Below are positions 31,838-46,996 of a stretch of 64,000 nucleotides of DNA, one piece after another. The notes under the pieces are model-generated. The model was not told the origin of the DNA and did no database searches. It saw only the letters and a list, made by a program, of their open reading frames with translations. Position numbers and translations under genes: made by a program. Source of the DNA: Candidatus Moraniibacteriota bacterium (GTDB taxonomy: Bacteria > Patescibacteriota > Minisyncoccia > Moranbacterales > UBA2206); NCBI GenBank assembly GCA_049303905.1, contig JBAQNP010000039.1, positions 36,682 through 100,681 on the forward strand, in the 5' to 3' direction. Every line of letters begins with the position of its first letter. Within the stretch, counting starts at the first letter, position 1.

Positions 31838-31978
31838 ACTAATATGTTTGATTTTACTATAACATGGCTATAACATGGTTTTGCTTTTTAGTTATTTTTA
31901 TAAATTAACTATACTATAATTTTATAAATAAAATTTAATACTTATATTAATACTTTGCGATATCCCATGAGCAATGAT

Positions 31979-32752
31979 TTATTTAATACCAACAAAATAA
32001 ACTCCGGCTGACATTATATATTGTTTGTTTTGTGGAATATATTGATTAAATTGGTTAAAATCAATAAGAAATTTATCTTCAAATTCTCTTTTAATTTTAT
32101 CATCACTTAGTAAATCGCGATAAGTTCTGAGAAGAATATTAAGAGTATACGAGGCTGTTTGATAACTTTCAACTCCGGCATCAATTTCCTTGAAACTCTT
32201 AAACACTTCTCTCAGGCCCTCCAAGGTCATGTTGAAATAATGATATGGGTCAGCATGAACGGGCTGCAAAAAAGCGGTATCAATTAAAACCTTTCCGCCA
32301 GGTTTCAAAACACGATAGATCTCTTTTGCATAATAGAATGGGTCCTTCACATGCTCAAATACAGACTCACTTATTACAAAATCAAAAATATCATCCCCGA
32401 AAGGTAAATTCCCTTCAGTTGAAACAATGTCCGTAGATTTGTAATGCACAAATTCCATTTTCAAAATATTATCAAAAAGTTCTTCCTTGGCTGGATTTCC
32501 TGCGCCGAAATCTAAAATTTTTGCATCTGGATTATTTTTTATTATCTCTAATGATTTTGATGAGTAAGGATTAGTGCTATTTGTTTCATTAAGTTTATTA
32601 ATATATATCGTTTCATCAGCCAGAAACACTGGAACATTTTCTTTGATCTGAAATTTATACCCACATTTTTGGCAATTTTCTTTTTTTAATTCAATCTTGT
32701 TGCGACACCTTGGGCAAGCTAGATTGTTCGCAATTAGTTCTATTTTGTTCAT
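31979..32752 (-). CDS. class I SAM-dependent methyltransferase with N-terminal zinc-ribbon
   Basis: CPRCRN...CQKCGY zinc ribbon; LDFGAGN (motif I) and LKPGGKVLI (post-I). Confidence 0.7.
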   Translation of the reverse strand: MNKIELIANNLACPRCRNKIELKKENCQKCGYKFQIKENVPVFLADETIYINKLNETNSTNPYSSKSLEIIKNNPDAKILDFGAGNPAKEELFDNILKMEFVHYKSTDIVSTEGNLPFGDDIFDFVISESVFEHVKDPFYYAKEIYRVLKPGGKVLIDTAFLQPVHADPYHYFNMTLEGLREVFKSFKEIDAGVESYQTASYTLNILLRTYRDLLSDDKIKREFEDKFLIDFNQFNQYIPQNKQYIMSAGVYFVGIK

Positions 32753-32759
32753 TTTTTTA

Positions 32760-34559
32760 TTATTTTAAATTTTTATACCATAATCTGTAAACCAATATAC
32801 TATATAATAATCGTCCACGATCCTCTTTTCCTGATAAATGATTGTCAATTAATATTTTGTAATAGTTATTATTAATTAGATCATTTTGAATAAAATCAGA
32901 GCTTTCTATTAATTTTTCTTTTAGTATTCCCCTTAACCATTCCGACATCGGCAAATTAAATCCTTGTTTTTTTCTAGAAAAAATTTCTTTTGGTAATAAA
33001 TCAACACAAGCCTCTCTCAATATATACTTACTCACACCTCCTTTCCATTTATATTTTTTTGGTAAATTATAACCATATTCAACTAGTTTTGAATCTAAAT
33101 ATGGAGCTCGTCCCTCAAGTGAAGCTGCCATCCCCATTCGATCATATTTTATGAGTAAGTCATCCACTAGCCAACTATAGATATCAGAGTGCTGAGCTTT
33201 TTTCATTCGATCTTTTATGCTTTGAGAATCCTTTATGAATCCTTTTTCATTAATACTTTTTTCAAAATCAATCTCATCTTCTCTAGCATTTTTTCCCATA
33301 AGTATCAATCGATCAAATTTATTTGTTATAAGCGGAAAACCACTTGTAGTCTGGCAAAGAATTTCATTTAAAAAAGATTTTTTATTGCTAAATAAACTTT
33401 TTATTATGTCTTTTAAATTATCATTTTTCACAAAAGGAGCATAATATTCATAACCACCAAAAACTTCGTCTGCACCCTCTCCGCCCAACACAACCGTTAC
33501 ATATTTCTTAGCTTCTCGAGAAAGCAATAGAACGGGCAGTAATGCTTGATCACCGATTGGTTCATCCATATATTTTACAACCTCGGGTAACATATTAACA
33601 ACATCTTTTTCTGTAAATACAAAGTGATGATGATCTGTTTTATAATGTTTCGCGACTGCCTTTGAAAAATTCGATTCATCAAATTTCGGATTTTCAAAAC
33701 CAATCGAAAAAGTCTTGAGATTTTTAGTATGTTTTGACATAATTCCCACCATTATCGAAGAATCTATTCCGCCACTCAGAAAAGCCCCCACAGGAACATC
33801 GGCAACCATGCGATCCCTGATACTTTTTTCAATATACATTCGAATATTTTTTTTAGCTTGGCTAAAAGAATCCTTTATTATCCTTTCATTTAATTTCCAA
33901 TATTTTTTCATATTAAATTCCAATGTTTCAATATCTAAAACTAAATAATGACCTGCTTTCAAACGAACAATGTCTTTCAAAATAGTTTTTTCCTCTGGAA
34001 CAAAATGCAAAGCTAAAAATTTATATAAGGATTCCGGCTCGATTTCTTTTGGTGTGTTTTTATCAACTAAAATCGCTCTTAATTCGGAAGAGAATATAAA
34101 TTTCTTACCATCCGTATGATAATAAAGCGGTTTTTCTCCGAATCTATCTCTTGCTATAAAAATCTTATTTTTTCGCTTATCATAAATTGCAAAAACAAAC
34201 ATTCCTTCAATTTTTTCAAGAAGACCGTCTATGCCCCATTCTTCGTATCCATGTACTAAAACCTCTGTATCTGATTTTGTTCCAAAAATATGACCACCTC
34301 TAAACAACTCCTCCCGCACATTCTTAAAATTATATATTTCACCATTAAAAAAAACGATGATATTTCCGTTTTCATTGTAAATTGGTTGATCTCCTCCAGA
34401 GATATCTATAATTTTTAATCTCCTCATCGCTAAAGCAATTTTATCTTCAACAAAAAAACCCGCGCTATCAGGACCGCGATGAAATATTTCATCATTCATT
34501 TTTTCTATTTCACTTTTTTCTATTTTATTCTTACTAACAATCCCAACTATTCCACACAT
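32760..34559 (-). CDS. asnB: asparagine synthase (glutamine-hydrolysing) family amidotransferase
   Basis: MCGIVGIV N-terminal nucleophile; SGGIDSS PP-loop; 599 aa. Confidence 0.9.
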   Translation of the reverse strand: MCGIVGIVSKNKIEKSEIEKMNDEIFHRGPDSAGFFVEDKIALAMRRLKIIDISGGDQPIYNENGNIIVFFNGEIYNFKNVREELFRGGHIFGTKSDTEVLVHGYEEWGIDGLLEKIEGMFVFAIYDKRKNKIFIARDRFGEKPLYYHTDGKKFIFSSELRAILVDKNTPKEIEPESLYKFLALHFVPEEKTILKDIVRLKAGHYLVLDIETLEFNMKKYWKLNERIIKDSFSQAKKNIRMYIEKSIRDRMVADVPVGAFLSGGIDSSIMVGIMSKHTKNLKTFSIGFENPKFDESNFSKAVAKHYKTDHHHFVFTEKDVVNMLPEVVKYMDEPIGDQALLPVLLLSREAKKYVTVVLGGEGADEVFGGYEYYAPFVKNDNLKDIIKSLFSNKKSFLNEILCQTTSGFPLITNKFDRLILMGKNAREDEIDFEKSINEKGFIKDSQSIKDRMKKAQHSDIYSWLVDDLLIKYDRMGMAASLEGRAPYLDSKLVEYGYNLPKKYKWKGGVSKYILREACVDLLPKEIFSRKKQGFNLPMSEWLRGILKEKLIESSDFIQNDLINNNYYKILIDNHLSGKEDRGRLLYSILVYRLWYKNLK

Positions 34560-35662
34560 ATATTTTTTATTAATGTTTCATATTTTTCTAACATAATTTC
34601 AAAAGAAAAATCTTTTTCCACTTTTTTTCTAGCATTATTAGCTAGTTCATTCGCATTGTTCTTATTCTCAAGCATCCATTTCATTTTTTGAAACAGTTCT
34701 GCCACATCCCCCGCCATTATTAAAATTCCTTCCTTTTTATTTTCTATTTGTTCAGAAATTCCATAAACATCAGTTGCGATTATTGGCAGATTAAATGCCA
34801 TCGCTTCTAGAACTACTCTTGGGAAAGATTCAATGTAGGAATTACAAACAAAAAAATCACTCATCAAAAAATATTCATATGCTCCAAGAGATTCCTTGAT
34901 GATTTTAATATTCTCAGCGTAACCACTCTCTTGAATTATTTCATTAATTCTTCTTTCATACAAACTGTCTCTCCCTCCAATGATAAGGAACTTGAGCTTT
35001 CTATTTCTTGTTTTATTAAGTAGTTTTATAGCAGCTTGAGTAAATTCTAATTGCCCTTTACGCAAGCATACTGCACCCACAATACAAAAAATTAAATCAG
35101 TATCTGCAATTCCATATTTTCTTCTCATGCCCTGCTTAGAATTTTTTTTAATAAAAGCGTTAATTTTCCCTAAATCAAGCCCATTATATATTGTCACAAA
35201 ATTATTTCTTTCCATATCTCCATATATTTCCATAGTACTTTTTGCAACAAAAACAACTCGAGCAACTTCCGAAAAAAATTCTTTTTTTAAATCAGCATAT
35301 TTATTGAAATATACCTCCCTCTCACTTTCCCTTATGCACCAAACTATTTTATTTTTTTCGACATTTAGATTTTTTATAAATTTATATCCGAGAATAGTGT
35401 TAACAAAAAAAACATCCACATCCATTAATAATTGTCTCGGGCAAGTTCTCGAAAAAAAATCAAAAACAGACACATCAACACCTTCATTTTTATAAAAGTC
35501 AGTAAGTGGTCCGTCTTGCGGAGATATTACACTCACTTCATAGCCCAACCTTTTAAAACCTTTGACCAAATAAAAAAGCGACCATGTTGCACCCTCTGGC
35601 TCCAAATTGTGTGAAACAAATAAAATTCTTTTAGTTTTCTTCTTTAATTCTAAATTGTTCAT
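34547..35662 (-). CDS. GT4 family glycosyltransferase
   Basis: RILFVSHNLEPEGATWSL...ESFPRVVLEAMAFNLPIIATDVYGISEQI. Confidence 0.8.
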   Translation of the reverse strand: MNNLELKKKTKRILFVSHNLEPEGATWSLFYLVKGFKRLGYEVSVISPQDGPLTDFYKNEGVDVSVFDFFSRTCPRQLLMDVDVFFVNTILGYKFIKNLNVEKNKIVWCIRESEREVYFNKYADLKKEFFSEVARVVFVAKSTMEIYGDMERNNFVTIYNGLDLGKINAFIKKNSKQGMRRKYGIADTDLIFCIVGAVCLRKGQLEFTQAAIKLLNKTRNRKLKFLIIGGRDSLYERRINEIIQESGYAENIKIIKESLGAYEYFLMSDFFVCNSYIESFPRVVLEAMAFNLPIIATDVYGISEQIENKKEGILIMAGDVAELFQKMKWMLENKNNANELANNARKKVEKDFSFEIMLEKYETLIKNICVE

Positions 35663-38528
35663 TACTTAGTGATAAATTTATATTATAATATGGATCGCTT
35701 TTAATATATTTTTTCCATGTATTTTTGAAATAATTTAGTTCATTTAAATTATCTCCAAATCCTCGCGTTTTTCCCTCGTGATGGTAAAGAATTGCGCTTG
35801 GATTATATACTATCCTACTTCCAATCTCCAAAATTTTCAAACAATAATCAACATCTCCATATGAAACTGCTAAATCTTTTTCATTAAATCCGTCAACTGT
35901 CTTAAAAAGACTTTTTTTAGTCAATAAACATGCGGCTGTAACAGCAGAATAATTCTTTAGAACAAGAGCATAACTTAAATACCCAGAATCGTTTCTATTC
36001 ATCAGCTTATGAGCATGTCCAGCAGAATTATCATTAAGTCCAAGCACAACACCAGCGTGCTGGATTCTATTATCAGCATAAATTAATTTTGCCCCTATAG
36101 CTCCAATTTTTTTATCCACCGAGATTGATCCGACCATTTCTAAAAGCCAATTTGAAGAGATAATTTCTGTATCATTATTAAGAAATAGAATAAGCTCTGA
36201 ATTTATTTTGTCAACCGCCAGATTATTTATTTTGGAAAAATTAAATTTATATGTTTTAATATCAATAACAGAAATTTTTTCATTTTTAAAATATTGAAAT
36301 GTTTCCTTTTCAATACTATTATTATTAATAACTAAAATCTCGTAATTGGAATAGTTCGTCTTTTCTTTTATACTGTCAATGCATCTTTTTAATAATGGGA
36401 TATTATCCTTTGTCGGAATAATAATTGTAACTTTTTCTTGATAATCTTTCGGGTTAAATTTAAGTTTATATACGCCAATTCGGGATTTTTCAGCAAAATC
36501 AGGAATTACTGCAGTTGCCTTAATGCCTCTGCGATCTAACGCTTCCTGAACCGCCACTTGTCCTAGTCTTATGCTTGCAGGTTTTTCAATAGTAGAATAC
36601 GCCACCGAACCAGGAATGCTTCGCCAATGATACAATATTTTTGGGATATGCCCAATTTTTTCAGTTACCTCAGCCAATCTAAGTAAAAAATCAAAATCTT
36701 GAGAACCATCAAATTCGCTTCTAAATCCTTTCAAATCTATAAATATTGATTTTCGCAAAAACTTAAAGTGACTTATATAACAATACGACAATAACAATTC
36801 CGGACTCCAATCAGGTTTAAATTGCGGATCATAACGAAAACCATTTTCATCAATTTTGTCATCATCGCTATATATCAAATCAAGCTCTTTATTTTTATTT
36901 AGCAATTTAATATTTTCATATAGAGCTTCTGGCTCCAGCTCATCATCATGATCGAGAAAAGCAATAAATTCTCCCGTTGCCATTTCCACACCTTTATTTG
37001 TCGCTCCAGATATACCCAAGTTATCATCTAAATACAGAACCTTAACTCTATGATCTCTATTTTTAAATTCGTTAAGAATTTTCTTGATTATTATTTTGTC
37101 AGATTTGTCATCAATAATACACAACTCCCAATTCTCATAATATTGATAAAGTACAGAAAATATTGCCTTTCTTAGAAAAATTTCATCCGTATTATAAACA
37201 GGCAAAATAATTGAGACTTTAGGTTTATAACTTAAATATTTTATTTCCTTTTCAATATTTCTATAATCAATTATTTTTTTCTCTCTTTCTATATTACTTA
37301 TCCATTTTTTATAAGGTATATCATTATTTTCAAAATCTTTCTTTTTTTCTAAAAATCCTTCCCCATAAAAAATGTAATTCCATATCCTCAGTGTTACATT
37401 TCTGAAGCCTTCTGTCCTAAATGAAATGACCGCTTGCTGATATAAAACTCTTATTTTTCTAAGAAATCCCAATACTCGATCAATCATTCTAAAAATCGGT
37501 TGAGGAATTTGTTTTTGAATATTGTTTATATAGAAACAATAGAAAAAATTGGGAATTCTCCATTGTAAAGATTTTTTGATCGCGTTAAGTTCGAAATGTT
37601 GCTGTTGCAATATATTCTCTTTATTTTCAAGTTCTTGATTTTTTATTCCTATTTCTTGATCTTTTTGTTGAATTTCTTGATCCTTTTGCTGAATAGATTG
37701 ATCTTTTCGCTGAATTTCTTGGTTCTTTTCTTGGATAATTTGATCTTTTTGCTGAATTTCTTGGTTCTTTAAATATTCTTTATACTTTTCATATAATGGA
37801 TTTATTCTTCCGTCATACAAAATTTTGTGCTTCAAAAAAATGTATTCATATACTCCCTCCACTCCTTTATCGTCTGCATATAATTTTTTATTCCTTGATT
37901 TTTTCCTAATTCTGTAAAAAAAATGAACTTTTGGAATTTGGTAAACAATATCATTTTCTTTTAAAAATGACAACCAAAAATCCCAATCCTCAAGACCATC
38001 TTTCATTTTTTCATCATAACCACTTGTGCTATCATAATCTAATCTTCTAAACATTGCTGTACAAAAAATCATATTTCCAAATAATATTTTTTCATAAGAA
38101 TATTCTGGAAGATTCCAAATACCCAAAGCATCTCCAAATAATTCAACCTTACAATATACTAACTTTATTTTTGGTTTGTTTTCTAAAATTCCTACCGCTT
38201 CCTGCAAATAATCTTTTGATATAAGATCATCTGAATCCAAAGGAAGAATATATTTACCACTACTATTTAATATGCCATTATTGCGGGCTACTGATGGTCC
38301 TTGATTTTCTTGTTTGATATATTCAAAACGCTTATCTTGATTGCAATATTTTTGAGCAATATCTTTTGTGTTATCAGTAGAACCATCGTCTATGATTATA
38401 CATTCCCAATTTTTATAATCCTGCTCCAAAACCGAATCTAAAGTTTCAGATAAAAAAATCGCCTGATTATAAGAAGGAATAATAACAGAAACTAATGGAT
38501 CATTATTTTTATCACTTATCTCAAACAT
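35631..38528 (-). CDS. multi-domain protein with three GT2 glycosyltransferase domains and a central Q/K/D/E heptad coiled-coil repeat
   Basis: Domain 1 VSVIIPSYNQ...IIIDDGSTDNT; domain 2 VSIILPVYNTDE...CIIDDKS; domain 3 VTIIIPTKDN...LVINNNS. Between domains 1 and 2 lies QEIQQKDQIIQEKNQEIQRKDQSIQQKDQEIQQKDQEI. Confidence 0.8.
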   Translation of the reverse strand: MFEISDKNNDPLVSVIIPSYNQAIFLSETLDSVLEQDYKNWECIIIDDGSTDNTKDIAQKYCNQDKRFEYIKQENQGPSVARNNGILNSSGKYILPLDSDDLISKDYLQEAVGILENKPKIKLVYCKVELFGDALGIWNLPEYSYEKILFGNMIFCTAMFRRLDYDSTSGYDEKMKDGLEDWDFWLSFLKENDIVYQIPKVHFFYRIRKKSRNKKLYADDKGVEGVYEYIFLKHKILYDGRINPLYEKYKEYLKNQEIQQKDQIIQEKNQEIQRKDQSIQQKDQEIQQKDQEIGIKNQELENKENILQQQHFELNAIKKSLQWRIPNFFYCFYINNIQKQIPQPIFRMIDRVLGFLRKIRVLYQQAVISFRTEGFRNVTLRIWNYIFYGEGFLEKKKDFENNDIPYKKWISNIEREKKIIDYRNIEKEIKYLSYKPKVSIILPVYNTDEIFLRKAIFSVLYQYYENWELCIIDDKSDKIIIKKILNEFKNRDHRVKVLYLDDNLGISGATNKGVEMATGEFIAFLDHDDELEPEALYENIKLLNKNKELDLIYSDDDKIDENGFRYDPQFKPDWSPELLLSYCYISHFKFLRKSIFIDLKGFRSEFDGSQDFDFLLRLAEVTEKIGHIPKILYHWRSIPGSVAYSTIEKPASIRLGQVAVQEALDRRGIKATAVIPDFAEKSRIGVYKLKFNPKDYQEKVTIIIPTKDNIPLLKRCIDSIKEKTNYSNYEILVINNNSIEKETFQYFKNEKISVIDIKTYKFNFSKINNLAVDKINSELILFLNNDTEIISSNWLLEMVGSISVDKKIGAIGAKLIYADNRIQHAGVVLGLNDNSAGHAHKLMNRNDSGYLSYALVLKNYSAVTAACLLTKKSLFKTVDGFNEKDLAVSYGDVDYCLKILEIGSRIVYNPSAILYHHEGKTRGFGDNLNELNYFKNTWKKYIKSDPYYNINLSLSNEQFRIKEEN
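37636..37770. repeat. 21-bp tandem DNA repeat encoding the QKDQEIQ coiled-coil heptads
   Basis: Plus strand carries repeated units ...TTGCTGAATTTCTTGATCCTT... with about 6 visible copies. Confidence 0.6.
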
Positions 38529-38532
38529 TGAT

Positions 38533-40998
38533 TTATGAATTATTTTTTAGTTTATTATAAATTTTTAAAATTTTATAATAACCAATCTTTAAGTATCTAT
38601 TTGTAAAATTTTTGATTAGAAAAATTAAATTTAAAAGAGAAGTTGTCCTCATTATGATTTGTTTTTTGTGAGAAATATGAACTATTTCAATTTTACCTTG
38701 AATATTTTTATATAGCTTTTCATCTTTTTTATTACTTAAATACCCTGTCACAAGATCGAATTTGTTTTTTTCAAGTAAACCAAAAAATTCAAATCTTTCC
38801 TTATTTAAGACAACTGAATCCTTTAAGCATGTATTATATTTATATATTTGTTCAACCTTGACTGTCTTAAAAATTATGCCGTCTCTAATTTTTTCAAATA
38901 TTTCAAGCCCTTTTTCTGAATTAACAATAACAGCAGAAACTCCCCTATCATCATCAAAATTTTTGTCTTCAATATCTATTCCCCAGAAATCACCTAAAAT
39001 AATATCCGCTGTACTCTTTTTGGAAAGTCTATATTCACAATCATAGCATGATTGTCTTAAATAATAATTTTTTAAAAATCCAATCATAAATGAATCTTCC
39101 CATATTTTTTTCTTTACTGACTTGTTTTTGAATATATACTCTACCTGATAATTTTTCCATCCTTTTTCTTTATTTCTAAAATTGATTTCAATTAAAATAT
39201 CATTTTGCTGTTTTTCTAATTCTTTTATATTTTTCAGAAAGACCTTTTTACTTGGTACACCATGGCATACAACAGAAACACAATACAAATTAGAATAATC
39301 TTTCCCTAAAAAAGCTCTCAGTCCTTCTATCTGACAAGGGGTTCCAGAAAATAATACTTTTTTTTCACTTTCCAATTCCTGCTTTACTTTATTATAACAA
39401 TCACCAATAATACTTTGTACATATTTCGAACCCCTCAATTTACTTAAATCTTTTTCATTATCTATTTTAATATGTTTCACTTCATAATCAAAATAAGTAG
39501 CACCAAAAACACACCCACCTTGTTTTAATATATTCCTTGCTAATAAACTGAAGACTCCCCCCGATGAACTTTTAAGTCTTTCGTTTTTTGAAATATTTTT
39601 GCAAGCATAAGCAAGCAAATTATCGTATTCATATGCATAGTTTTTATTATTTGGACAAATATTTCTACAAATATTACATTCAATACATTTTTGTTTATTT
39701 ATATTTGGAAACAAAAAACCCTCATTATCCTCTTTCATCTCTATTGCTTTTTGTGGACAAGAATTTGCGCAGGCCCCACAGCCAGAACACCCTTCTTTTT
39801 TTGTTACATTTTCACTATCTAATTTTTCTAATTTTTCTAATGTCACTTCAAATAATTTATCTGATTCCTTTTCAAAAATTGGCATTTTTTTCTCCAAAAC
39901 GTTTTTTATTTTTTCTTCATTTTCCACTAAGCATTTAAATTTTTCAATCAATTTTTTTTCGCTCATTTCTTCTATAGGTAACACATAGTCCTCATAATTT
40001 CCAAATATATCTTTTGCGATACCTTTCGATTTTATGCTATATCCTAAAACTAAAGTCGGCACGTAAGTTGAATATCCAGCGATACTAGCATGTGTTCGTG
40101 CTGCGATAAGAAATCTGCATTTTGAAATTATATATTTCAATTCATTACAATTGTAAATTCTTTCCTTTAAAACAAAGACTCTTTCATCATTAGAATACAT
40201 TTCTTTTATTTTCTCAAGAGTATCAAGATCATTCCCATCTTCTATGTAAACATGAGGAATTAAAGCAATTTTATATTTATGATTACTTAAAATATAATCA
40301 ATTAATTTTTTAACACTTGCGATTATGTCGGTTTTATCACTTTGATAATTTAATATCATTGGACTTATGTTCAAACCAACAATACCCTCCTTAGAATTAA
40401 ATTTTTCAGGAAGATTAATTTTTTGAATTTCCAATGAAAAAGCAATATCTGGACCTAATATTATTTTTTTTTCATCAATAAATTTTGATAACAAGCCGTA
40501 TGTCAAAGATTCTCTAACTAAAACAATATCGAATTCCCTGATATCTTTTATAAATTTTTCATCTATTGCTTCAGCATTGACCGAAGCTCCCCAAAGGATA
40601 AGTTTTTTATTTTTTTCTTTTATTTTTTTATCAATAAAATAAAGCCAATTTGAAACATTATAGCAGTAGTTATCTCCACCAACAGATATAAACAGATCAT
40701 TTCTTTCTATTTCTTTTACTACATCCTTATGTGCCATCTCTTCTATATCCACTTTTTTTTCATCACATAATGCTATTTTTTCTCTATCAAATTTATGTGC
40801 CCATTCATGAATAACATATTTATCTATAATATCATTATAATATTTTTTATCATTTTCAATATCAAAAGTAGCAACAGTTAACTTATTGCTTCGATTAAAT
40901 TCTTTTATAGTTTTGGAAGTATTGGTTACAATAGCCTCGCACCCCTTGTTCAGATAAGACCCATGACCAAATAGTAAAATATTATATTTTTTGTTCAT
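38533..40998 (-). CDS. fusion: polysaccharide pyruvyl transferase domain + 2x[4Fe-4S] ferredoxin domain + coenzyme F420 hydrogenase beta-subunit (FrhB)-like domain
   Basis: N-terminal ILLFGHGSYLNKGCEAIV (PS_pyruv_trans-like). CSGCGACANSCP and CIECNICRNICP are two CxxCxxCxxxCP clusters. C-terminal SSSGGVFSLLA...GTPCQIEGLRAF...VVCHGVPS...DIILGDFWG matches the FrhB N- and C-terminal domains. Confidence 0.7.
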   Translation of the reverse strand: MNKKYNILLFGHGSYLNKGCEAIVTNTSKTIKEFNRSNKLTVATFDIENDKKYYNDIIDKYVIHEWAHKFDREKIALCDEKKVDIEEMAHKDVVKEIERNDLFISVGGDNYCYNVSNWLYFIDKKIKEKNKKLILWGASVNAEAIDEKFIKDIREFDIVLVRESLTYGLLSKFIDEKKIILGPDIAFSLEIQKINLPEKFNSKEGIVGLNISPMILNYQSDKTDIIASVKKLIDYILSNHKYKIALIPHVYIEDGNDLDTLEKIKEMYSNDERVFVLKERIYNCNELKYIISKCRFLIAARTHASIAGYSTYVPTLVLGYSIKSKGIAKDIFGNYEDYVLPIEEMSEKKLIEKFKCLVENEEKIKNVLEKKMPIFEKESDKLFEVTLEKLEKLDSENVTKKEGCSGCGACANSCPQKAIEMKEDNEGFLFPNINKQKCIECNICRNICPNNKNYAYEYDNLLAYACKNISKNERLKSSSGGVFSLLARNILKQGGCVFGATYFDYEVKHIKIDNEKDLSKLRGSKYVQSIIGDCYNKVKQELESEKKVLFSGTPCQIEGLRAFLGKDYSNLYCVSVVCHGVPSKKVFLKNIKELEKQQNDILIEINFRNKEKGWKNYQVEYIFKNKSVKKKIWEDSFMIGFLKNYYLRQSCYDCEYRLSKKSTADIILGDFWGIDIEDKNFDDDRGVSAVIVNSEKGLEIFEKIRDGIIFKTVKVEQIYKYNTCLKDSVVLNKERFEFFGLLEKNKFDLVTGYLSNKKDEKLYKNIQGKIEIVHISHKKQIIMRTTSLLNLIFLIKNFTNRYLKIGYYKILKIYNKLKNNS

Positions 40999-41006
40999 AT
41001 TTGTCT

Positions 41007-42314
41007 TTAATTACTTTGATTCCTCCATTCATGTTCAAAATCACATAAGCCCCTATAATTTCCTTTTAAGCCAGGAGTGAATATTTTTAGTTTTTTATAT
41101 TTTTGTTTTATATCATAATAAACAATTTCTTCTTTACCGAAACAAGCAGCATTTAAATAATAATCTCCTTTTAAAATAGAAAGTTTGTTGAAATGCAAAA
41201 TTAAATTATTGTTATCTTCTTTTATTTTAAAATTATCCATCTGCGTATTATAACTAAAAATCCTTTCATCTTTTTCAGATCCATAAATCCCAACACCTAT
41301 ATTTAATCCGTCTATCTTTTTATAAATTTTAAAACTAATTTTAATATCAATACTTTCTCCTGTTTCGAAAACATTTTTCTTCTTACCATTATTATCTAAA
41401 AATTCAACATCAGTTATTTCTACCATCTTATTTTTCCTTTCTTCTTCCTGCTTTTTTTTCTCCTCTGCAATCCTCTTTTTTTCATTTTCCAATTCCTTGC
41501 CTTTCATCTTCTCCATCGCTTTTTTTGCCCATAATGCTTTTTCCTTTTCCTCTTTTAATATTCTCTTTTCTTCATCGCTCATATTATCATAAACGTAAGC
41601 ATTTGCTATTTCACTGGCTTTGCCGATTTTTTTGATCTTTCCGTTGCGAAGAAGCATTGCTCGATCGCAATATCTTTCCACCACCGAAATATCGTGCGTC
41701 ACGATGATAACAGTCCGTCCTAAATTTCTATAGCGATTAAATTCCGTGATGCATTTTGATTGAAAATTTGAGTCCCCTACGGCCAAAACTTCATCCATCA
41801 AAAGAATATCTCGGTTGGCGTGAATGGAAACTGAAAAAGCCAACCGCACTTGCATACCAGAAGAATAGTTTTTTAGTTTTTGATCGATAAATCTTTCTAG
41901 TTCTGAAAAAGCTACTATGGAATCAAATTTTTTGTCAATTTGTTTTTTAGTCATTCCAAGTACGGTAGCGTTGAGATAGATATTGTCGCGCCCCGAAAGC
42001 TCAGGATTGAAACCAATTCCCAACTCCAAAAATGGCGAAATCATCCCATTTATTCTAATTTTCCCCTTATCTGTTTGATATATTCCGGCCAAAATTTTGA
42101 GCAAAGTTGACTTTCCGCTTCCGTTTCGCCCGATAATGCCAAAAAATTCACCTTTTTTTACTTCAAAAGAAACATCGTTCAGTGCTTTGAATTCTTCACA
42201 AGCTTTTTCTCTGAAAGTATTTTGAACCGCACCCAAGACTGAATTAGTTTTTTCATGCGGAATACGGAAAGTTTTGGAAATATTTTCAACTTTTATCGCA
42301 ATTTTTTTGTTCAT
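41007..42314 (-). CDS. wzt: ABC transporter ATP-binding protein, Wzt/TagH-like, with about 200-aa C-terminal extension
   Basis: GRNGSGKST Walker A, LSGGMQ-like YSSGMQVRLAF signature, LLMDE Walker B; K/E-rich linker, then a beta-rich C-terminal domain. Confidence 0.85.
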   Translation of the reverse strand: MNKKIAIKVENISKTFRIPHEKTNSVLGAVQNTFREKACEEFKALNDVSFEVKKGEFFGIIGRNGSGKSTLLKILAGIYQTDKGKIRINGMISPFLELGIGFNPELSGRDNIYLNATVLGMTKKQIDKKFDSIVAFSELERFIDQKLKNYSSGMQVRLAFSVSIHANRDILLMDEVLAVGDSNFQSKCITEFNRYRNLGRTVIIVTHDISVVERYCDRAMLLRNGKIKKIGKASEIANAYVYDNMSDEEKRILKEEKEKALWAKKAMEKMKGKELENEKKRIAEEKKKQEEERKNKMVEITDVEFLDNNGKKKNVFETGESIDIKISFKIYKKIDGLNIGVGIYGSEKDERIFSYNTQMDNFKIKEDNNNLILHFNKLSILKGDYYLNAACFGKEEIVYYDIKQKYKKLKIFTPGLKGNYRGLCDFEHEWRNQSN

Positions 42315-42403: not shown

Positions 42404-44329
42404 TTGGCAAAAGGATTAAAATATGCTAAAATTAAACATATGGAAATAAAAAAATTAAAAAAGAGACTTTTCTTTCTTTCGTTTTTTGTTTTTAATTTGG
42501 TTTTTTTATTTGGAAGTCAATTTTTAAAAGTAGAAGCGACTTACTCTTCTGAAGGGATTGGTTTTTATGCGCAAACAAATTCTTTTGGATATACTGCTGA
42601 GGGCATTGCATTTTATACTTACACATCCCAAGTGGATGAAACATTGCCGGTATATAGATTTGTTAATTCAACTAGCGGAGACCATTTTTATACTGCATCG
42701 GAAAATGAAAAAACAGCCGTATTAAATAATCCTCAATGGGGATATACAGCAGAAGGAATTGCGTTTTATGTTTACACATCCCAAGTGAATGAAACATTGC
42801 CGGTATATAGATTTGTTAATTCAACTAGCGGAGACCATTTTTATACTGCATCGGAAAATGAAAGAAATTCTTTAAACAACAATCCTCAGTGGGGATATAC
42901 GGGAGAAGGAATTGCATTTTATGTATTTGACACACAGTTAGCAACAACATCTCCCGTTTATAGATTTTATGCTCCATCTACCGGAGATCATTTCTATACT
43001 GCTTCAGAAAGCGAAAAAAATAAATTAACTCTGTCTCCTGTTTATAGATTTTATGCTCCATCTACCGGAGATCATTTCTATACTGCTTCAGAAAATGAAA
43101 AAAGCATCGTAACAAACACATCCCAAAGCGGATATTTGCCTGAAGGTATAGCGTTTTATGCGTATACCACACAATTCAATGGGACTGTTCCAGTTTATAG
43201 ATTTTATGCTTCATCTACAGGAGATCATTTCTATACTACTTCGGAAAGCGAAAGAGATTCCCTAAATAATAATCCTCAATGGGGATATACCGCCGAAGGT
43301 ATAGAGTTTTATGCATATACCACACAAGCTGACGGAACCGTTCCGGTTTATAGATTTTATGCTCCATCTACCGGAGATCATTTCTATACTGCTTCAGAAA
43401 ATGAAAAAAATAATCTACTACTCTCTGAGTTAGGACCAGAAATTCCCGTTGGACTTTGGAACTATGGGTCCAGAACAGCTTTAAAGGATGATCCTTTCAA
43501 AATCAGTGCCAACAAAGCATACAATATAAAAAATAGAGATGGAAATATAGTTGCTCAAATAGATGGAGGCACACAAACTAGAGTGACTTATGACAGCGAT
43601 TCATATCTCAAAGCTTATGGTTCAGTTTCTGAAACAAGATCCAAAAATGTTTTCTATTTTGACGCAGTTGACGGTGACAATTCAACTTTGATTTTTGATG
43701 TCAATCGTCCAAGCTCCACCTATGACCAATATCGCGGAAAAATAAAAATCCAATATACCGACAGTGCCAACCTTTGGGTCATTAATACCCTACCATTAGA
43801 ACACTATGCTTGGGGCGCAGGAGAATTTACTGGAACCGGACCAGCGGAGCATAGCAAAGTAATGTCAACTATCTTTAGAACCTACGGCTACCAATATATA
43901 TCCTGGACTTCAACCATCTATGTTCCCTATGGATTTAGAATTAAAAGCGATTCCGGCAATCAAATTTATCGCGGTTATGATTGGGAAACGACCTATCCCA
44001 ATGTGAAAGTTGCCGCTCAAGCCACGCGCGGAGTTATTGCGACCTATAACGGTGATGTCGCTCTCACTCCATACAGTTCTTGGAGTGATGGCAGAACCAG
44101 AAGTTTTGAAGAAAGATGGGGATCGAAGGATTATCCTTGGTGTCGATCAGTTTCTGATCCCTACGGAAAAAACTCAACCATGACCACAAAGCAATTGGAA
44201 GATGCTGGTAATCATATGGTTGGACTCATTGCCAATGGATCTTTGAATCTCGCTAATAATCATAATTGGGATTGGCAAAGAATAATGAAATATTACTATA
44301 CCGGAATTTCCCTTAACACGGCCTACTAA
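42404..44329 (+). CDS. secreted protein: about 7 tandem 50-aa YRF...GDHFYT repeats + C-terminal SpoIID/LytB domain
   Basis: Repeats GYTAEGIAFYVYTSQVNETLPVYRFVNSTSGDHFYTASENE. The C-terminus LEHYAWGAGE...FRTYGYQY...QIYRGYDWE...YSSWSDGRT fits SpoIID/LytB. The likely true start is the internal Met at 42440 (signal peptide). Confidence 0.65.
   Translation: MAKGLKYAKIKHMEIKKLKKRLFFLSFFVFNLVFLFGSQFLKVEATYSSEGIGFYAQTNSFGYTAEGIAFYTYTSQVDETLPVYRFVNSTSGDHFYTASENEKTAVLNNPQWGYTAEGIAFYVYTSQVNETLPVYRFVNSTSGDHFYTASENERNSLNNNPQWGYTGEGIAFYVFDTQLATTSPVYRFYAPSTGDHFYTASESEKNKLTLSPVYRFYAPSTGDHFYTASENEKSIVTNTSQSGYLPEGIAFYAYTTQFNGTVPVYRFYASSTGDHFYTTSESERDSLNNNPQWGYTAEGIEFYAYTTQADGTVPVYRFYAPSTGDHFYTASENEKNNLLLSELGPEIPVGLWNYGSRTALKDDPFKISANKAYNIKNRDGNIVAQIDGGTQTRVTYDSDSYLKAYGSVSETRSKNVFYFDAVDGDNSTLIFDVNRPSSTYDQYRGKIKIQYTDSANLWVINTLPLEHYAWGAGEFTGTGPAEHSKVMSTIFRTYGYQYISWTSTIYVPYGFRIKSDSGNQIYRGYDWETTYPNVKVAAQATRGVIATYNGDVALTPYSSWSDGRTRSFEERWGSKDYPWCRSVSDPYGKNSTMTTKQLEDAGNHMVGLIANGSLNLANNHNWDWQRIMKYYYTGISLNTAY
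42575..43420. repeat. approximately 150-bp tandem DNA repeats (about 7 copies) inside the repeat-protein gene
   Basis: For example, 42640-42715 and 42790-42865 are nearly identical at the nucleotide level (TGAAACATTGCCGGTATATAGATTTGTTAATTCAACTAGCGGAGACCATTTTTATACTGCATCGGAAAATGAAA). Confidence 0.7.
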
Positions 44330-44337
44330 AAAAATAT

Positions 44338-44904
44338 ATGAAAAAAATATTCATTGTTTTGTTTCTAATACTTTCGGTTGCTAGCGTATATTATTCCTAT
44401 CCGATAATCAAAAACCGCTATTTTCCAGCTGTTTCCAAATCCGATCAAACGGAAAATCAGAATCAGTCTCAAGAAAATGACAAACAGCCAGACTCTTTTG
44501 AAAGCAATCCTTCCAGTGCCGAAAATAATCCTGAATCGACAGAAGAATCTTTGACGGACAATGATGAAATCGAACCTATTTCAATTAATGCTAATAATCA
44601 AAATAACGCCAGTGAAGATGTCTTAGCTAATATTACCCATGAGCATTGCGATTCTGAGTGTAAAGCATTCGCTAATAATTTTGAACATTTGGAATATTGC
44701 CAGCAAGTCTGTGGCATCTCTCCCGCAAAGAAAGTTTCCACTTCAGATTGCAAAGAGAAAAAAGATTTAGCCAAAGATTATTGCTTCAAGGATTTGGCTA
44801 TCAGCGAAAAAGATTTTTCCATTTGTGACAAGATAGAAGATTCAAATATCAAAAACTCTTGTAAAGATAGGATTACGCAAGATATTATTGAGCAAGCTAA
44901 GTAA
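44338..44904 (+). CDS. hypothetical secreted protein with low-complexity N/Q/E/S-rich region and Cys-rich C-terminus
   Basis: Signal-anchor N-terminus; 10 Cys in the last 80 aa; no recognisable family. Confidence 0.35.
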   Translation: MKKIFIVLFLILSVASVYYSYPIIKNRYFPAVSKSDQTENQNQSQENDKQPDSFESNPSSAENNPESTEESLTDNDEIEPISINANNQNNASEDVLANITHEHCDSECKAFANNFEHLEYCQQVCGISPAKKVSTSDCKEKKDLAKDYCFKDLAISEKDFSICDKIEDSNIKNSCKDRITQDIIEQAK

Positions 44905-44940
44905 TTTGAAATTTAAAATTTAAAATTCCAACCTCGTTGG

Positions 44941-45714
44941 TTATATGTTTTCCGCTACCTTAGGTATAAGTTTTCGATAAGAATACATTCCCAAAGCAAA
45001 GACAGAAATTACAATAGCGAAAAAAACCAAAACATAGTGAGTTGAAATTACAGATTGATTATAAATCAATGCTTGCTTGGTAAAATGCACAATGAAGGCC
45101 AACGGGTTTAGGAGAAAAATAACATGGTATTTTGCTGGAATAATAGATAAGGGATAAATTATCGGCGAGGCATACATCAAAATCATCAAAAGAACTTCCC
45201 AAATCATCGCTAAATCGCGAAATTTAACATACAGCGGAGCGGTTATAAGCGAAAAAGATAGGATTAGAATATACATGAAAATCGAAAAGATAAAAAAAAT
45301 CAAAATTGATCCAATGCTTGGCATAAATCCTTTGATAGCAAAAAATAAAGCAATCACAACGAGATTCATCAAAAAAATCATAGTCGCATTAATGGTTGAG
45401 GCAACTATTATTGTCCAGCGTGGAACATAAATCTTTGTTACTAATTGCGCTTTAGATAGGAGCGAACCCATGCCGGCAGTAGTACCCTCAGAGAAAAAAA
45501 AGAAAAGCATTAGTCCAACCAAAAGTTCCAGAGAATAAGTGCCACTAGCTCCGAACATAGCAGAAAAAACAAAATTCAAGACAGCAAAAATACAAAGAGG
45601 CTTCAAGAGAACCCACAGATAACCCAAAACAGAACCGTGATAGCGAAGTTTGAAGTCTGTTTTCGCCAGCATCCAGATTAGTTCACGATAATTTTCATGT
45701 TTTCTATTTTCCAT
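44941..45714 (-). CDS. wzm: ABC-2 type polysaccharide export permease (Wzm/TagG-like)
   Basis: 257 aa, 6 TM helices; N-terminal RELIWMLAKTDFKLRYHGSVLGYLWVLLKP, typical of ABC-2 permeases. Confidence 0.8.
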   Translation of the reverse strand: MENRKHENYRELIWMLAKTDFKLRYHGSVLGYLWVLLKPLCIFAVLNFVFSAMFGASGTYSLELLVGLMLFFFFSEGTTAGMGSLLSKAQLVTKIYVPRWTIIVASTINATMIFLMNLVVIALFFAIKGFMPSIGSILIFFIFSIFMYILILSFSLITAPLYVKFRDLAMIWEVLLMILMYASPIIYPLSIIPAKYHVIFLLNPLAFIVHFTKQALIYNQSVISTHYVLVFFAIVISVFALGMYSYRKLIPKVAENI

Positions 45715-46996
45715 AACTTCTTCTAATTATAAGTACATTAACGATATTATACAAACAATATAGCAAAACAAAATATGTGAGCGTTTCCACCTTGGCTATG
45801 AATAAAAGGCCATACATTATGAAAAAAATAAAAAGCATTACATAGGACACTTTTTTCAAGGCTAGATAATTTTTTTCTTCGCAAGATATTATGCTTTTAT
45901 ATAAGCTACTCACAAGCTGTAAGAATGCCATAGCTGAAAATGCCATTATATAAAAAACATTCAAATGATATTCCTTTCCGAATATGTTCATTATAGCATA
46001 GGAAAACAAAAACAACACAAAGGTTCCGGGAATCAAACCTAAGAATAATAATTTATCCACCTTTTTCATTATCACACCCTTGTCCTCAACTTGATTCACG
46101 ATTGGAAAGAACACATTATTGAATATCAAAATAATCTGGCCAACGAAGATGGCGGTGGAAACGAGATAGGCGCTATAGATTCCGATTTGCTCAATCCCCA
46201 ATGTTTTTCCGATAAAAAGCTTGTCCATCGATGCCATTATCGTCCCTATTATCGACAAGATGACGGTTATTTTGGAATACTGGATAATCTCCAAAAATTT
46301 TTGCTTGTTCCAAGCGACTAGCTTATGTCTTATTTTTAGGAAAAATATCAGGCCTAAAACAAAATATCCCGCCATTAGGGATATAAGATAATACTCATAG
46401 TCGTTGAATTTTAGAATAAAAAACAACAGAATAAATGTTGAGAGAATGACAATCCCCTCGACAATTTTGAAAAGTGATTGAAATTTGAAAAAATTGAAAC
46501 TTTTGATGAAACTGTCCAACAGTGTCCGCAGATTCGCCACAATGGCAAAAACAACTGCTAACAAAAATATTTTTTGATCAAAATTTAATAAGTGCACTAT
46601 CCGGAAATAAAAAGGAATAGAAAAAACAATCAAAAGAAAACTTGAGGATAAGATAATATAGAAAGAATTGGAGAGATATTGTTTTTTGTCTTCTTCTTTC
46701 TGACTGGATGAAATATATTTTATCGAAGTCATATCCAGACCTAGCAAGACAAAAATAGAAAGAATGTTCGCCACTACAAGCACCAGATTATATTTCCCAT
46801 ACCCCTCGGGACCCAAAATTCTTCCCGCCAAAACATTTACGATGAAAAGCACAATTCCATTGAAAAATATCCCGAAAAAAGACCAGGACAATTGTCTTAG
46901 AAAATCTTTCATCGTCGGACTGATTTCATGCCCAAAAACCCAAAGGTGTACGATTTCAACCACTGCGATTATTTTTTTCTTCCAAATTTCCAGCAT
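45704..46996 (-). CDS. Wzx-like flippase / MOP-family polysaccharide biosynthesis membrane protein
   Basis: About 12 TM helices; NVLAGRILGPEGYGKYNLV motif as in Wzx. A more likely start is the internal Met at about 46912 (MKDFLRQ). Confidence 0.65.
   Translation of the reverse strand: MLEIWKKKIIAVVEIVHLWVFGHEISPTMKDFLRQLSWSFFGIFFNGIVLFIVNVLAGRILGPEGYGKYNLVLVVANILSIFVLLGLDMTSIKYISSSQKEEDKKQYLSNSFYIILSSSFLLIVFSIPFYFRIVHLLNFDQKIFLLAVVFAIVANLRTLLDSFIKSFNFFKFQSLFKIVEGIVILSTFILLFFILKFNDYEYYLISLMAGYFVLGLIFFLKIRHKLVAWNKQKFLEIIQYSKITVILSIIGTIMASMDKLFIGKTLGIEQIGIYSAYLVSTAIFVGQIILIFNNVFFPIVNQVEDKGVIMKKVDKLLFLGLIPGTFVLFLFSYAIMNIFGKEYHLNVFYIMAFSAMAFLQLVSSLYKSIISCEEKNYLALKKVSYVMLFIFFIMYGLLFIAKVETLTYFVLLYCLYNIVNVLIIRRSYGK

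Follow-up and report, generated by a model that had tools for sequence, protein, structure and literature searches.

A polysaccharide pyruvyl transferase-like domain fused to an iron-sulfur flavoprotein in a glycan operon of Candidatus Moraniibacteriota: a possible enzyme of lactyl ether formation

A single gene in a glycan operon of a Candidatus Moraniibacteriota bacterium encodes a polysaccharide pyruvyl transferase-like domain joined to an iron-sulfur flavoprotein, and its transferase half lacks the Asp residue of the NxGD motif. We propose that the product may be a bifunctional glycan-tailoring enzyme, which would transfer an enolpyruvyl group from phosphoenolpyruvate (PEP) and then reduce it, in a ferredoxin-driven step, to a 1-carboxyethyl (lactyl) ether before export by an ABC transporter. 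We give this reading a probability of about one half; the PEP donor, as well as the substrate, electron source and product of the enzyme, are what we infer.

The gene occupies positions 38533-40998 of the window (the whole stretch of DNA analysed, 64,000 nucleotides of contig JBAQNP010000039.1), where translation of the minus strand gives one ATG-initiated open reading frame (ORF) of 821 aa. A preliminary description of this DNA had reported the ORF and its length, both of which were borne out; the strand is now given as minus, and the plus-strand frame across the same positions is riddled with stops. An identical 821-aa protein is present in NCBI as a 'polysaccharide pyruvyl transferase family protein' of a Candidatus Moraniibacteriota MAG. 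The protein comprises four parts, i.e. a PS_pyruv_trans domain, two CxxCxxCxxxCP ferredoxin motifs, an FrhB-like [4Fe-4S]/flavin module and a helical tail, which are laid out, together with a linker, as follows:

39964-40998, minus strand: PS_pyruv_trans-like GT-B domain, aa 1-345 (Pfam PF04230, hhalign, AF2, Foldseek)
39811-39963, minus strand: three-helix linker joining the transferase to the redox half, aa 346-396 (AF2 helices)
39634-39810, minus strand: 2x[4Fe-4S] ferredoxin domain, aa 397-455 (Fer4_7, Fer4 and Fer4_9 matches)
38824-39633, minus strand: FrhB-like [4Fe-4S]/flavin module, aa 456-725 (FrhB_FdhB_C, Foldseek)
38533-38823, minus strand: helical tail, aa 726-821 plus stop (AF2 at low confidence, tail alignment)

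Three of these parts had already been recognised. Each of the three domains is supported by HMM matches and also by fold, which is GT-B in the N-terminal half and FrhB-type in the C-terminal half (Pfam, AF2, Foldseek); the helical C-terminal tail (aa 726-821) was added to them as a fourth part. The full-length AF2 model is confident as a single body (pLDDT 89.5, pTM 0.84), and the linker helices (residues 347-359, 361-380 and 382-396) have pLDDT values >90. Since the motif residues of each of the three modules are conserved across 98 aligned homologues (41-84% identity), the fusion is not a chance pattern.

The gene was said to lie directly downstream of the Wzt ATPase gene in an ABC-transporter-type glycan operon, which is the case: the two are on the same strand, with a gap of 8 nt. 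The other genes of this neighbourhood (GT, glycosyltransferase family) are:

41007-42314, minus strand: first gene of the operon, a Wzt-type ABC ATPase with a carbohydrate-binding Wzt_C domain at its C-terminus (ABC_tran 1.7e-21, Wzt_C 1.5e-17)
35631-38528, minus strand: triple-GT2 protein of 965 aa (three Glycos_transf_2 stretches, E 8e-79)
34547-35662, minus strand: GT4 (Pfam)
32760-34559, minus strand: AsnB-like amidotransferase (Pfam)
31979-32752, minus strand: SAM methyltransferase (Pfam)
30833-31837, minus strand: GT2 (Pfam)
44941-45714, minus strand: Wzm-like ABC-2 permease (Pfam)
45704-46996, minus strand: Polysacc_synt (Wzx-like) membrane protein (Pfam)

The triple-GT2 gene begins 4 nt past the fusion gene, and its 965-aa product is a candidate polymerising glycosyltransferase. 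In the rest of the operon (30833-35662, minus strand) the ORFs overlap or abut, and the ORF map places two plus-strand genes between wzt and the minus-strand pair at 44941-46996. The Wzt ATPase also matches NCBIfam teichoic-acid/galactan exporter ATPases. A weak promoter-like site ahead of wzt (42392-42364) is a hint only; the promoter/terminator scan found 109 sites in this AT-rich DNA, barely above the shuffle expectation of 89 +/- 9.

A domain HMM scan upheld the PS_pyruv_trans assignment of the N-terminal half. The match to PF04230 (aa 17-321, E 1.5e-30) reached 107.5 bits, where the cut-off is 25.3, and covered profile positions 1-279 of 280. Escherichia coli K-12 WcaK, our reference pyruvyltransferase for the residue alignment, was aligned with this half by hhalign with 95% probability over 314 columns. 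The fold is GT-B, with two Rossmann-like halves (AF2 pLDDT 89), and the best Foldseek matches are GT-B enzymes (UDP-GlcNAc 2-epimerases, BshA), the same pattern as that reported for WbbZ (PMC10629545). The solved pyruvyltransferases WbbZ (6X1L) and Pvg1p (5AX7) were outside the top 50 Foldseek matches, a PDB sequence search with the whole protein returned only the ferredoxin and FrhB parts, and a PDB search with the N-domain profile gave nothing meaningful. The conserved residues of this half are N17-x-G19-C20-E21, R162xxxT166, H249 and R301-T-H303. R162, H249, R301 and H303 are invariant, and position 166 is S or T in 98/98 homologues; the Rxxx(S/T), His and second Arg motifs assigned to PEP binding are therefore all present in this alignment.

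The missing residue is the Asp of NxGD. The hhalign alignment sets 'GNRGDSAIL' of WcaK against 'LNKGCEAIV' of the fusion protein, which places C20 at the position of the Asp; among the 98 homologues this position is occupied by C (75), V (22) or I (1). Nine further independent fusions have NYGA, NHGA or NHGCE at the same site, and in about 20 unfused transferases with a reductase partner NxG is followed by C, V, S, A, G or N. The Asp is absent from every reductase-associated transferase examined (107 fused copies and ~20 unfused partners, from loci that are partly related to one another), and is kept in 4/4 controls which have no reductase neighbour (WcaK, Rhizobium, L. plantarum and Priestia). 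NxGD is reported to be conserved in 49 ketal-pyruvyltransferases, and an acceptor-contacting Asp is essential in Pvg1p (PMC10629545); the equivalence of this residue, D106, to the NxGD Asp is putative. In the NxGCE subgroup, an invariant Glu stands right after the motif and might replace the Asp. Thus, the N-terminus is pyruvyl transferase-like, as first described, in its family membership (HMM), but with the conserved NxGD Asp missing it is not a canonical ketal-pyruvyltransferase.

By sequence and fold, the redox half appears to be intact as a catalyst, with all 12 cluster Cys residues and the flavin-site motifs conserved. The two CxxCxxCxxxCP motifs that had been claimed are present (C404-SG-C407-GA-C410-ANS-C414-P and C438-IE-C441-NI-C444-RNI-C448-P); they lie about 30 residues apart in a region (aa ~400-451) matched above threshold by Fer4_7, Fer4 and Fer4_9 of Pfam, and all eight ferredoxin-domain Cys are found in 97/98 homologues. 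FrhB_FdhB_C matches aa 546-716 (E 6e-24, 85.1 bits, cut-off 23.3). FrhB_FdhB_N (aa 470-529) remains below threshold with 18.4 bits against a cut-off of 22; it exceeds the threshold in related fusions (e.g. 41.1 bits in P0169), and the fold match spans this region of the fusion protein. Conserved features of the FrhB-like module are SSSGG (477-481), GSKY (523-526), C555-Q, C578-HG, R648, C651, C654 and GDFWG (669-673). C555, C578, C651 and C654 are invariant in 98/98 homologues, as are S477, S479, G480, G523-S-K-Y526, D670, W672 and G673. By analogy, the four Cys would bind a [4Fe-4S] cluster, and the SSSGG, GSKY and GDFWG motifs would form the flavin site. Foldseek matches of the C-terminal half include 8rja_E (5e-15), 8riu_B (5e-14), 7npa (Fsr, 2e-13), 7bkb_E, 6qii_B (FrhB) and 5dqr (HCAR).

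The family name and the best of these structural matches, which are F420-reducing or F420-oxidising subunits, would make the protein a genuine coenzyme F420-dependent oxidoreductase. We judged this highly improbable, since all NCBIfam equivalog cut-offs are far missed (e.g. 51.8 bits vs 475 for FpoF), and HCAR, a ferredoxin-dependent enzyme that uses no F420, is among the structural matches too. Moreover, the carriers are gut Clostridia, Bacilli/Mycoplasmatota, Bacteroidota and Desulfobulbia, and we know of no F420 synthesis in these taxa. Alternatively, the transferase might perform canonical ketal pyruvylation, with the Fe-S/flavin half as a non-catalytic redox sensor, regulatory module or scaffold. 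Regulatory Fe-S domains do sometimes occur, and the strong PS_pyruv_trans match and the conserved PEP-binding residues speak for this model. It does not agree with the retention of the FrhB-cluster Cys in 98/98 and the ferredoxin Cys in 97/98 homologues, with flavin-site motifs kept as in an active FrhB-type enzyme, with the existence of stand-alone reductases of the same kind, or with the absence of the putative equivalent of the Asp needed for ketal formation by Pvg1p, and we consider it unlikely.

The preliminary description had proposed a database search for the domain order. The architecture proved to be widespread and not singular: there are >460 homologues, relatives are found in the genomes of 583 species, and the reductase module by itself accounts for 17,446 cluster representatives. 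The two modules are fused in either order, and some proteins are triple fusions that also contain GT2 or GT4. The genomic coupling of transferase and reductase is obligate: in the best 80 genome loci the two form a single fused ORF in 62 cases and separate ORFs in 14, of which 13 are adjacent. Stand-alone reductases of ~385 aa share an operon with a PS_pyruv_trans gene in metagenomic Clostridiales loci, and likewise in Bacteroides finegoldii, Desulfotalea psychrophila and Pseudobutyrivibrio xylanivorans, the last of which has two such pairs; in these three the unfused genes belong to capsule/EPS loci. The adjacent pair of B. finegoldii is WP_262916171 and WP_306561199, and cultured carriers include P. 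xylanivorans MA3014, D. psychrophila LSv54 and Terrisporobacter muris DSM 29186. The pairing is common in the polysaccharide gene clusters of anaerobes.

Sugars with 1-carboxyethyl (lactyl) ethers have been known for decades from O antigens, capsules and rumen or cyanobacterial exopolysaccharides; to our knowledge, muramic acid is the sole lactyl ether with an established biosynthesis. A link between such ethers and the transferases is suggested by Klebsiella, in which the K8, K22, K37 and K66 types were scored as not pyruvylated, yet have pyruvyltransferase genes (PMC4616057). According to the published gene listing, K22 and K37 have in common a private transferase plus a 'nitroreductase' (HG127), and K66 has a private transferase plus a gene annotated 'coenzyme F420 hydrogenase' (HG203); these flavoreductase genes are private as well. 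The K22 and K37 capsules contain 4-O-(1-carboxyethyl)-GlcA (literature), and for K66 a beta-Glcp-O-lactyl residue was read from a tab-delimited table. This correlation of genes with chemistry comprises three K types, of which only one has the FrhB-like gene. K8 has the transferase gene, no reported pyruvate and no listed reductase. In E. coli, the loss of glucolactilic acid that separates O124 from O164 maps to wfeP (literature), a gene assigned in a review to nucleotide-sugar synthesis (UDP-GlcLA), not polymer modification. The papers on E. coli O antigens, supplements included, give no annotation of wfeP; in a Zunongwangia EPS cluster, a gene annotated 'WfeP' adjoins a '4Fe-4S ferredoxin' gene.

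It should be borne in mind that coupled domains may have separate targets. The transferase might add pyruvate (as a ketal or otherwise), while the Fe-S flavoprotein catalyses some other, unrelated redox reaction of that glycan or of its precursor, such as reduction of a keto-sugar or of an unsaturated sugar or acyl substituent; the fusion would then provide shared localisation only. This possibility, to which we accord a low but appreciable likelihood, would suit a GT2-reductase fusion without a transferase domain (P0173), as well as the very large size of the reductase family, which may have several substrates. On the other hand, the repeated independent fusion with PS_pyruv_trans in both orders, together with adjacency in at least three phyla, argues for consecutive steps. 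Separate targets are also difficult to reconcile with the co-variation of Asp loss with reductase presence, and with K66, K22 and K37, which have lactyl ethers and no ketal pyruvate.

In the preferred reading, i.e. enolpyruvyl transfer followed by reduction, the enzyme would act in the cytoplasm on a lipid-linked polysaccharide, ahead of Wzm/Wzt export. The N-terminal GT-B domain would bind PEP via its conserved Arg and His residues and transfer the three-carbon acid onto one sugar hydroxyl. Because the NxGD Asp is missing, we infer that the product released would be an enolpyruvyl ether, without closure to a cyclic ketal. The electron donor of the second step would be of low potential; reduced ferredoxin or flavodoxin is probable, F420 is not. 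The electrons would pass through the two ferredoxin-type [4Fe-4S] clusters and the FrhB-type [4Fe-4S] cluster to the flavin. The flavin would then reduce the enolpyruvyl ether at its C=C bond, yielding an O-(1-carboxyethyl) (lactyl) ether. Within the FrhB family, HCAR and BciB are FAD/Fe-S reductases that depend on ferredoxin, and the bond reduced by BciB is a vinyl C=C.

The same end product might arise through a different intermediate, if the transferase built a cyclic pyruvate ketal, one C-O bond of which was then cut reductively by the FrhB-like module. The data on module coupling and chemotype fit this route equally, and the PEP-binding residues of ketal-pyruvyltransferases are kept. However, it leaves the loss of the NxGD Asp in every reductase-associated transferase unaccounted for, and of the two reactions only C=C reduction has an FrhB-family precedent (BciB), as we know of none for reductive ketal cleavage. 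A route through the ketal seems quite unlikely.

A further question is where on the polymer the modification is placed. The enzyme might be a chain terminator, which adds a lactyl-ether cap at the non-reducing end, with the cap as the ligand of the adjacent Wzt_C and the coiled-coil tail as a WbdD-like ruler of chain length; we regard this extension as doubtful. A terminal pyruvate cap has a precedent in WbbZ of Klebsiella O1b (PMC10629545). The tails of homologues consist of a variable-length, coiled-coil-like helical insert followed by 'YNSKRWKY'. In the window protein the insert is short (tail alignment), residues 765-802 have pLDDT <50 (AF2), and the end is basic/hydrophobic, TSLLNLIFLIKNFTNRYLKIGYYKILKIYNKL. 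A cap-binding Wzt as a general partner of these enzymes was mostly rejected: 41/43 of the Wzt proteins encoded beside homologous enzymes are short (243-270 aa) and have no binding domain, and a Wzt_C-like region, present in the Wzt of the window, was found in none of the related loci. The chain-terminator reading, if true, would link cell-surface polymer export to the low-potential redox state of the cell.

The redox half was said to lack an established role in glycan pyruvylation, which agrees with the searchable literature. The terms 'pyruvyl*' and 'F420' co-occurred there in a polysaccharide context in one paper only, a Klebsiella cps catalogue that lists the genes. The words F420, ferredoxin and lactyl do not appear in a 2019 review of glycan pyruvylation, and no function was found in the open-access literature for the 'coenzyme F420 hydrogenase beta subunit' genes, which are very common in capsule/EPS loci.

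If the lactyl-ether proposal is true, a family of thousands of proteins gains a function and a better name. NxGD, as opposed to NxG-non-Asp plus a reductase partner, would then allow ketal or lactyl decoration to be predicted from genomes, which could help serotype and capsule prediction in Klebsiella, E. coli/Shigella, gut Bacteroidota and Clostridia. The pathway would be a second, convergent and Fe-S-dependent answer to MurA/MurB chemistry, and therefore reliant on anaerobic or low-potential metabolism.

Several known systems share features with the fusion protein. Its N-terminal half resembles the ketal-pyruvyltransferases of PF04230 (CsaB, WcaK, WcfO, WbbZ, Pvg1p) in HMM match, GT-B fold, PEP-binding residues and glycan-operon setting. 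These enzymes carry the NxGD Asp, whereas the fusion has Cys (Val in some homologues) and other reductase-associated members have A, G, N or S; in addition, covalent or genomic coupling to an Fe-S flavoprotein is not required for ketal formation by PF04230 enzymes. The redox half is similar to the FrhB family (FrhB, FpoF, FdhB, the N-terminal half of Fsr, and plant/cyanobacterial HCAR and BciB) in the FrhB_FdhB_C domain, the four Cys, the flavin motifs and the fold, and it shares the N-terminal 2x[4Fe-4S] ferredoxin domain with Fsr and FpoF. Unlike that family, it belongs to no hydrogenase, dehydrogenase or sulfite-reductase complex, always accompanies polysaccharide genes, and occurs in lineages without known F420 synthesis.

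Like WbbZ and the WbdD-type chain terminators of ABC-transporter-dependent O-antigen pathways, the fusion is a putative tailoring enzyme whose gene lies beside wzm/wzt, and the Wzt of the window has the Wzt_C cap-binding domain. The family tails, with their variable coiled-coil-like insert and basic end, may also be WbdD-like, although that of the window protein has only a short coiled coil; the kinase and methyltransferase domains of WbdD-type terminators are absent from the fusion, for which terminal placement of the modification is a proposal. With MurA and MurB, the enzymes of muramic acid synthesis, the fusion would share the logic of a PEP-derived enolpyruvyl ether followed by flavin-mediated C=C reduction to an O-lactyl ether. 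The likeness is confined to this proposed chemistry: the folds are unrelated and there is no homology, and Pfam (E up to 0.1) detected neither EPSP-synthase-type (MurA) nor FAD_binding_4/MurB_C (MurB) domains in the fusion protein. While MurA and MurB use NADPH and a nucleotide sugar, with UDP-GlcNAc as the acceptor of the enolpyruvyl group, the fusion is predicted to use electrons from ferredoxin through Fe-S clusters, and its substrate is presumably a lipid-linked glycan.

We found that the preliminary description of an 821-aa three-domain fusion, placed directly downstream of the Wzt ATPase in an ABC-transporter-dependent glycan operon, was real and correct in both respects, since the ORF, the Pfam and fold matches and the operon map all agree. 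The gene lies on the minus strand and has the following features:

38533-40998, minus strand: fusion gene, a single ORF of 821 aa (ATG at 40998, stop codon at 38533-38535)
aa 17-321: PS_pyruv_trans (Pfam, 107.5 bits against a cut-off of 25.3), which upholds the pyruvyl transferase assignment of the N-terminal part
approximately aa 400-451: 2x[4Fe-4S] ferredoxin domain (Pfam), with both CxxCxxCxxxCP motifs present
aa 470-529: FrhB_FdhB_N (Pfam, below threshold)
aa 546-716: FrhB_FdhB_C (Pfam, 85.1 bits against a cut-off of 23.3)

AlphaFold2, supplied with 98 homologues, modelled the whole protein as one confident body (pLDDT 89.5, pTM 0.84), with low definition confined to the helical tail (aa 765-802). 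Foldseek aligned the N-terminal half with GT-B enzymes and the C-terminal half with subunits of the FrhB type; the latter matches include 8rja_E (5e-15), Fsr, FdhB and FrhB as well as HCAR, a plant reductase. NCBI holds a 100% identical protein, named "polysaccharide pyruvyl transferase family protein", with the source label Candidatus Moraniibacteriota MAG.

The Wzt gene, whose product carries a Wzt_C domain, is separated from the fusion gene by 8 nt, and a gene whose 965-aa product has three GT2 domains begins 4 nt 3' of it, followed by genes for a GT4, an AsnB-like amidotransferase, a methyltransferase and a GT2. The Wzm permease gene is located farther upstream, past two divergently oriented genes. 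The surroundings include:

32760-34559, minus strand: asparagine-synthase-like glutamine amidotransferase, in the same operon as the fusion gene
42404-44904, plus strand: the two divergently oriented genes between wzt and wzm, one encoding a 641-aa protein (three DUF5648 repeats and a SpoIID domain), the other a 188-aa ORF without a family match
47762-51022, minus strand: 1086-aa protein with an LCAT/PGAP1-like alpha/beta-hydrolase mid-region, adjoining a Wzx-like gene
54761-56152: DUF4012 protein

A short hairpin (44928-44940) separates convergent gene ends. Over the fusion and triple-GT2 genes (36001-40000) the GC content falls to 27.8%, while most of the window has about 32-35%; such a drop is usual in glycan loci that are variable or exchanged horizontally.

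The fusion architecture is common and already present in databases, and it is functionally unstudied. A full-length search returned 463 significant proteins, and nearly all of the 120 matches listed share the domain order, at 800-860 aa. Relatives occurred in 583 species (one genome scanned per species), and the best 80 of these belong to gut and rumen Clostridia, Bacilli/Mycoplasmatota, Muribaculaceae, Alistipes, Rikenellaceae, Lachnospiraceae and Oscillospiraceae. Of these 80 loci, 43 have a Wzt/Wzm pair within 10 kb, most often directly upstream. The nearest species-level relatives are from gut Clostridia and Bacilli (at most 48% identity); the sole matches at 84% are on two short metagenomic contigs. 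A partial fused gene (46% identity) at a contig end in a MAG labelled Methanobrevibacter (L067) may reflect mis-binning or transfer.

A single fused ORF was present at 62 of the 80 loci, while in 14 the transferase and the reductase had an ORF each, the two adjoining with a spacing of 0-76 nt in all but one. The exception (L078) is Terrisporobacter muris DSM 29186, a cultured isolate, where a 334-aa ORF lies between a 394-aa transferase and a 675-aa ORF whose N-terminal portion is the reductase. Other fusions show the reverse domain order or the arrangements GT4-transferase-reductase, GT2-reductase-transferase and GT2-reductase. Larger proteins with an added GT2, GT4 or GT92 are P0005, P0007, P0009 (about 1130 aa), P0178, P0216, P0300 and P0173, the last being a GT2 plus reductase without the transferase domain. 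Three sets of metagenomic loci have a stand-alone reductase and a PS_pyruv_trans gene in one operon, as do the annotated records for Pseudobutyrivibrio xylanivorans (with two pairs at a single locus), Desulfotalea psychrophila and Bacteroides finegoldii. The P. xylanivorans pairs lie in an EPS locus of plasmid pNP95 of strain MA3014 (L088); in the first pair, the annotation splits the transferase into two overlapping CDS (perhaps a frameshift), with a radical SAM gene just upstream. The repeated fusion in both orders and the adjacency across phyla provide strong evidence that the two modules serve the same pathway step or consecutive steps. By itself, the ferredoxin-FrhB module is represented by 17,446 clusters at E <=1e-3 (8,196 at 1e-30), most of them stand-alone proteins of about 385 aa; that the two halves perform unrelated tailoring steps is nevertheless unlikely.

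The transferase half departs from known ketal-pyruvyltransferases at a conserved position. Three motifs are conserved in 49 glycan ketal-pyruvyltransferases, namely NxGD, Rxxx(S/T) and a His, and in Pvg1p an Asp touching the acceptor galactose is essential (PMC10629545). The fusion family shares the other two motifs and differs in lacking the Asp of NxGD. In the 98-sequence alignment R162xxx(S/T), H249 and R301-T-H303 have no exception, and the residue following N17-x-G19 is Cys in 75 sequences, Val in 22 and Ile in one; in a profile alignment with WcaK of E. coli (314 columns, 95% probability), this Cys falls opposite the Asp of "NRGD". The Asp is likewise replaced in nine more, independently fused proteins (NYGA, NHGA or NHGCE) and in about 20 unfused transferases beside a reductase gene (NxG and then C, V, S, A, G or N). 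This sample, which is partly related by descent, includes no fewer than two different subtypes of transferase (NxGCE; NYGA/N/G). NxGD was kept in all four transferases found without a nearby reductase (WcaK and plasmid genes of Rhizobium, Lactiplantibacillus plantarum and Priestia).

In the redox half, all eight ferredoxin-domain cysteines are present in 97 of 98 homologues; another four (C555, C578, C651 and C654) never vary, nor do the SSSGG, GSKY and GDFWG motifs. Judged from sequence, an active FrhB-type enzyme that binds a flavin and three [4Fe-4S] clusters would show just this pattern, and a non-catalytic redox or regulatory role appears improbable. Genuine F420 dependence, which the FrhB-like fold might bring to mind, is extremely improbable: the NCBIfam cut-offs for F420 enzymes are far above the scores of the fusion protein, and we know of no F420 synthesis in the carrier lineages. 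BciB and HCAR are FrhB-family members of non-methanogens that act as ferredoxin-dependent FAD/Fe-S reductases, BciB on a vinyl C=C bond.

Within the searched literature, pyruvylation and F420 came together in a polysaccharide context only in a paper that catalogues the cps loci of 79 Klebsiella types (PMC4616057), which agrees with the earlier remark that the redox half has no established role in glycan pyruvylation. The K8, K22, K37 and K66 capsules lack pyruvate, yet their loci contain pyruvyltransferase genes (PMC4616057). K22 and K37 have in common a private transferase (wclZ) and a private "nitroreductase", while K66 has a private transferase (wcqF) and the sole "coenzyme F420 hydrogenase" of the data set (PMC4616057, supplementary table). 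A constituent of both K22 and K37 is 4-O-[(S)-1-carboxyethyl]-glucuronic acid, and the K66 side chain, as read from a tab-delimited table row, has a beta-Glcp-O-lactyl residue. Combining the gene table with these structures, a pyruvyltransferase-family gene is paired with a flavoreductase gene in all three lactyl-ether types. E. coli O124 and O164 differ solely in glucolactilic acid, which maps to a wfeP frameshift; in a Zunongwangia EPS cluster, a "4Fe-4S ferredoxin" gene adjoins one annotated "WfeP". Carboxyethyl sugars are abundant in the exopolysaccharides of Butyrivibrio and Pseudobutyrivibrio.

We propose, with a probability of about 0.5, a two-step mechanism preceding export: enolpyruvyl transfer and ferredoxin-driven reduction to a 1-carboxyethyl ether. 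The domains, conserved residues, genomic coupling and Asp loss are observations, beside which we infer the donor, substrate, electron source and product. The GT-B domain would move the enolpyruvyl group of PEP onto one sugar hydroxyl of a lipid-linked glycan and, because it lacks the acceptor-contacting Asp, would leave the ketal unclosed. The opposite sequence, in which a ketal is formed first and then opened reductively, is quite improbable. A low-potential donor would then supply electrons that reach the flavin by way of the three clusters; the flavin would convert the enol ether into the 1-carboxyethyl ether, and Wzm/Wzt would finally export the modified glycan. Asparagine-synthase-like glutamine amidotransferases amidate sugar carboxyl groups, so that of the operon (32760-34559) might act on a uronic acid or on the new carboxyethyl carboxylate.

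The enzyme might also be a WbdD-like chain terminator, which we consider doubtful. This reading derives from the Wzt_C domain of the window Wzt, the variable helical insert of the homologues and known terminal pyruvate caps. In E. coli O9a a domain of the Wzt_C kind binds the terminal cap, and the window Wzt shares this type of domain. Terminal pyruvate caps have precedent (PMC10629545). Against termination, 41 of 43 Wzt proteins beside homologues are short and lack such a binding domain, and the helical insert is short in the window protein. At loci L008 and L037 the Wzt-like ATPase lies inside an ORF of about 1030-1045 aa and is thus fused to something else. The tail of the homologues consists of the insert, of highly variable length, then a conserved "YNSKRWKY" and a basic tail; that of the window protein (38533-38823) deviates in the same way as those of P0004 and P0010, the insert being short and the end hydrophobic/basic.

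To conclude, the two-step mechanism gives the fusion family a specific candidate function and a sequence rule (the Asp loss), both testable. The type of reaction is known, and the family that would carry it out has no assigned function. Although according to Pfam the fusion protein belongs to neither the MurA nor the MurB family, the working scheme proposed for it is the same as that of MurA followed by MurB.
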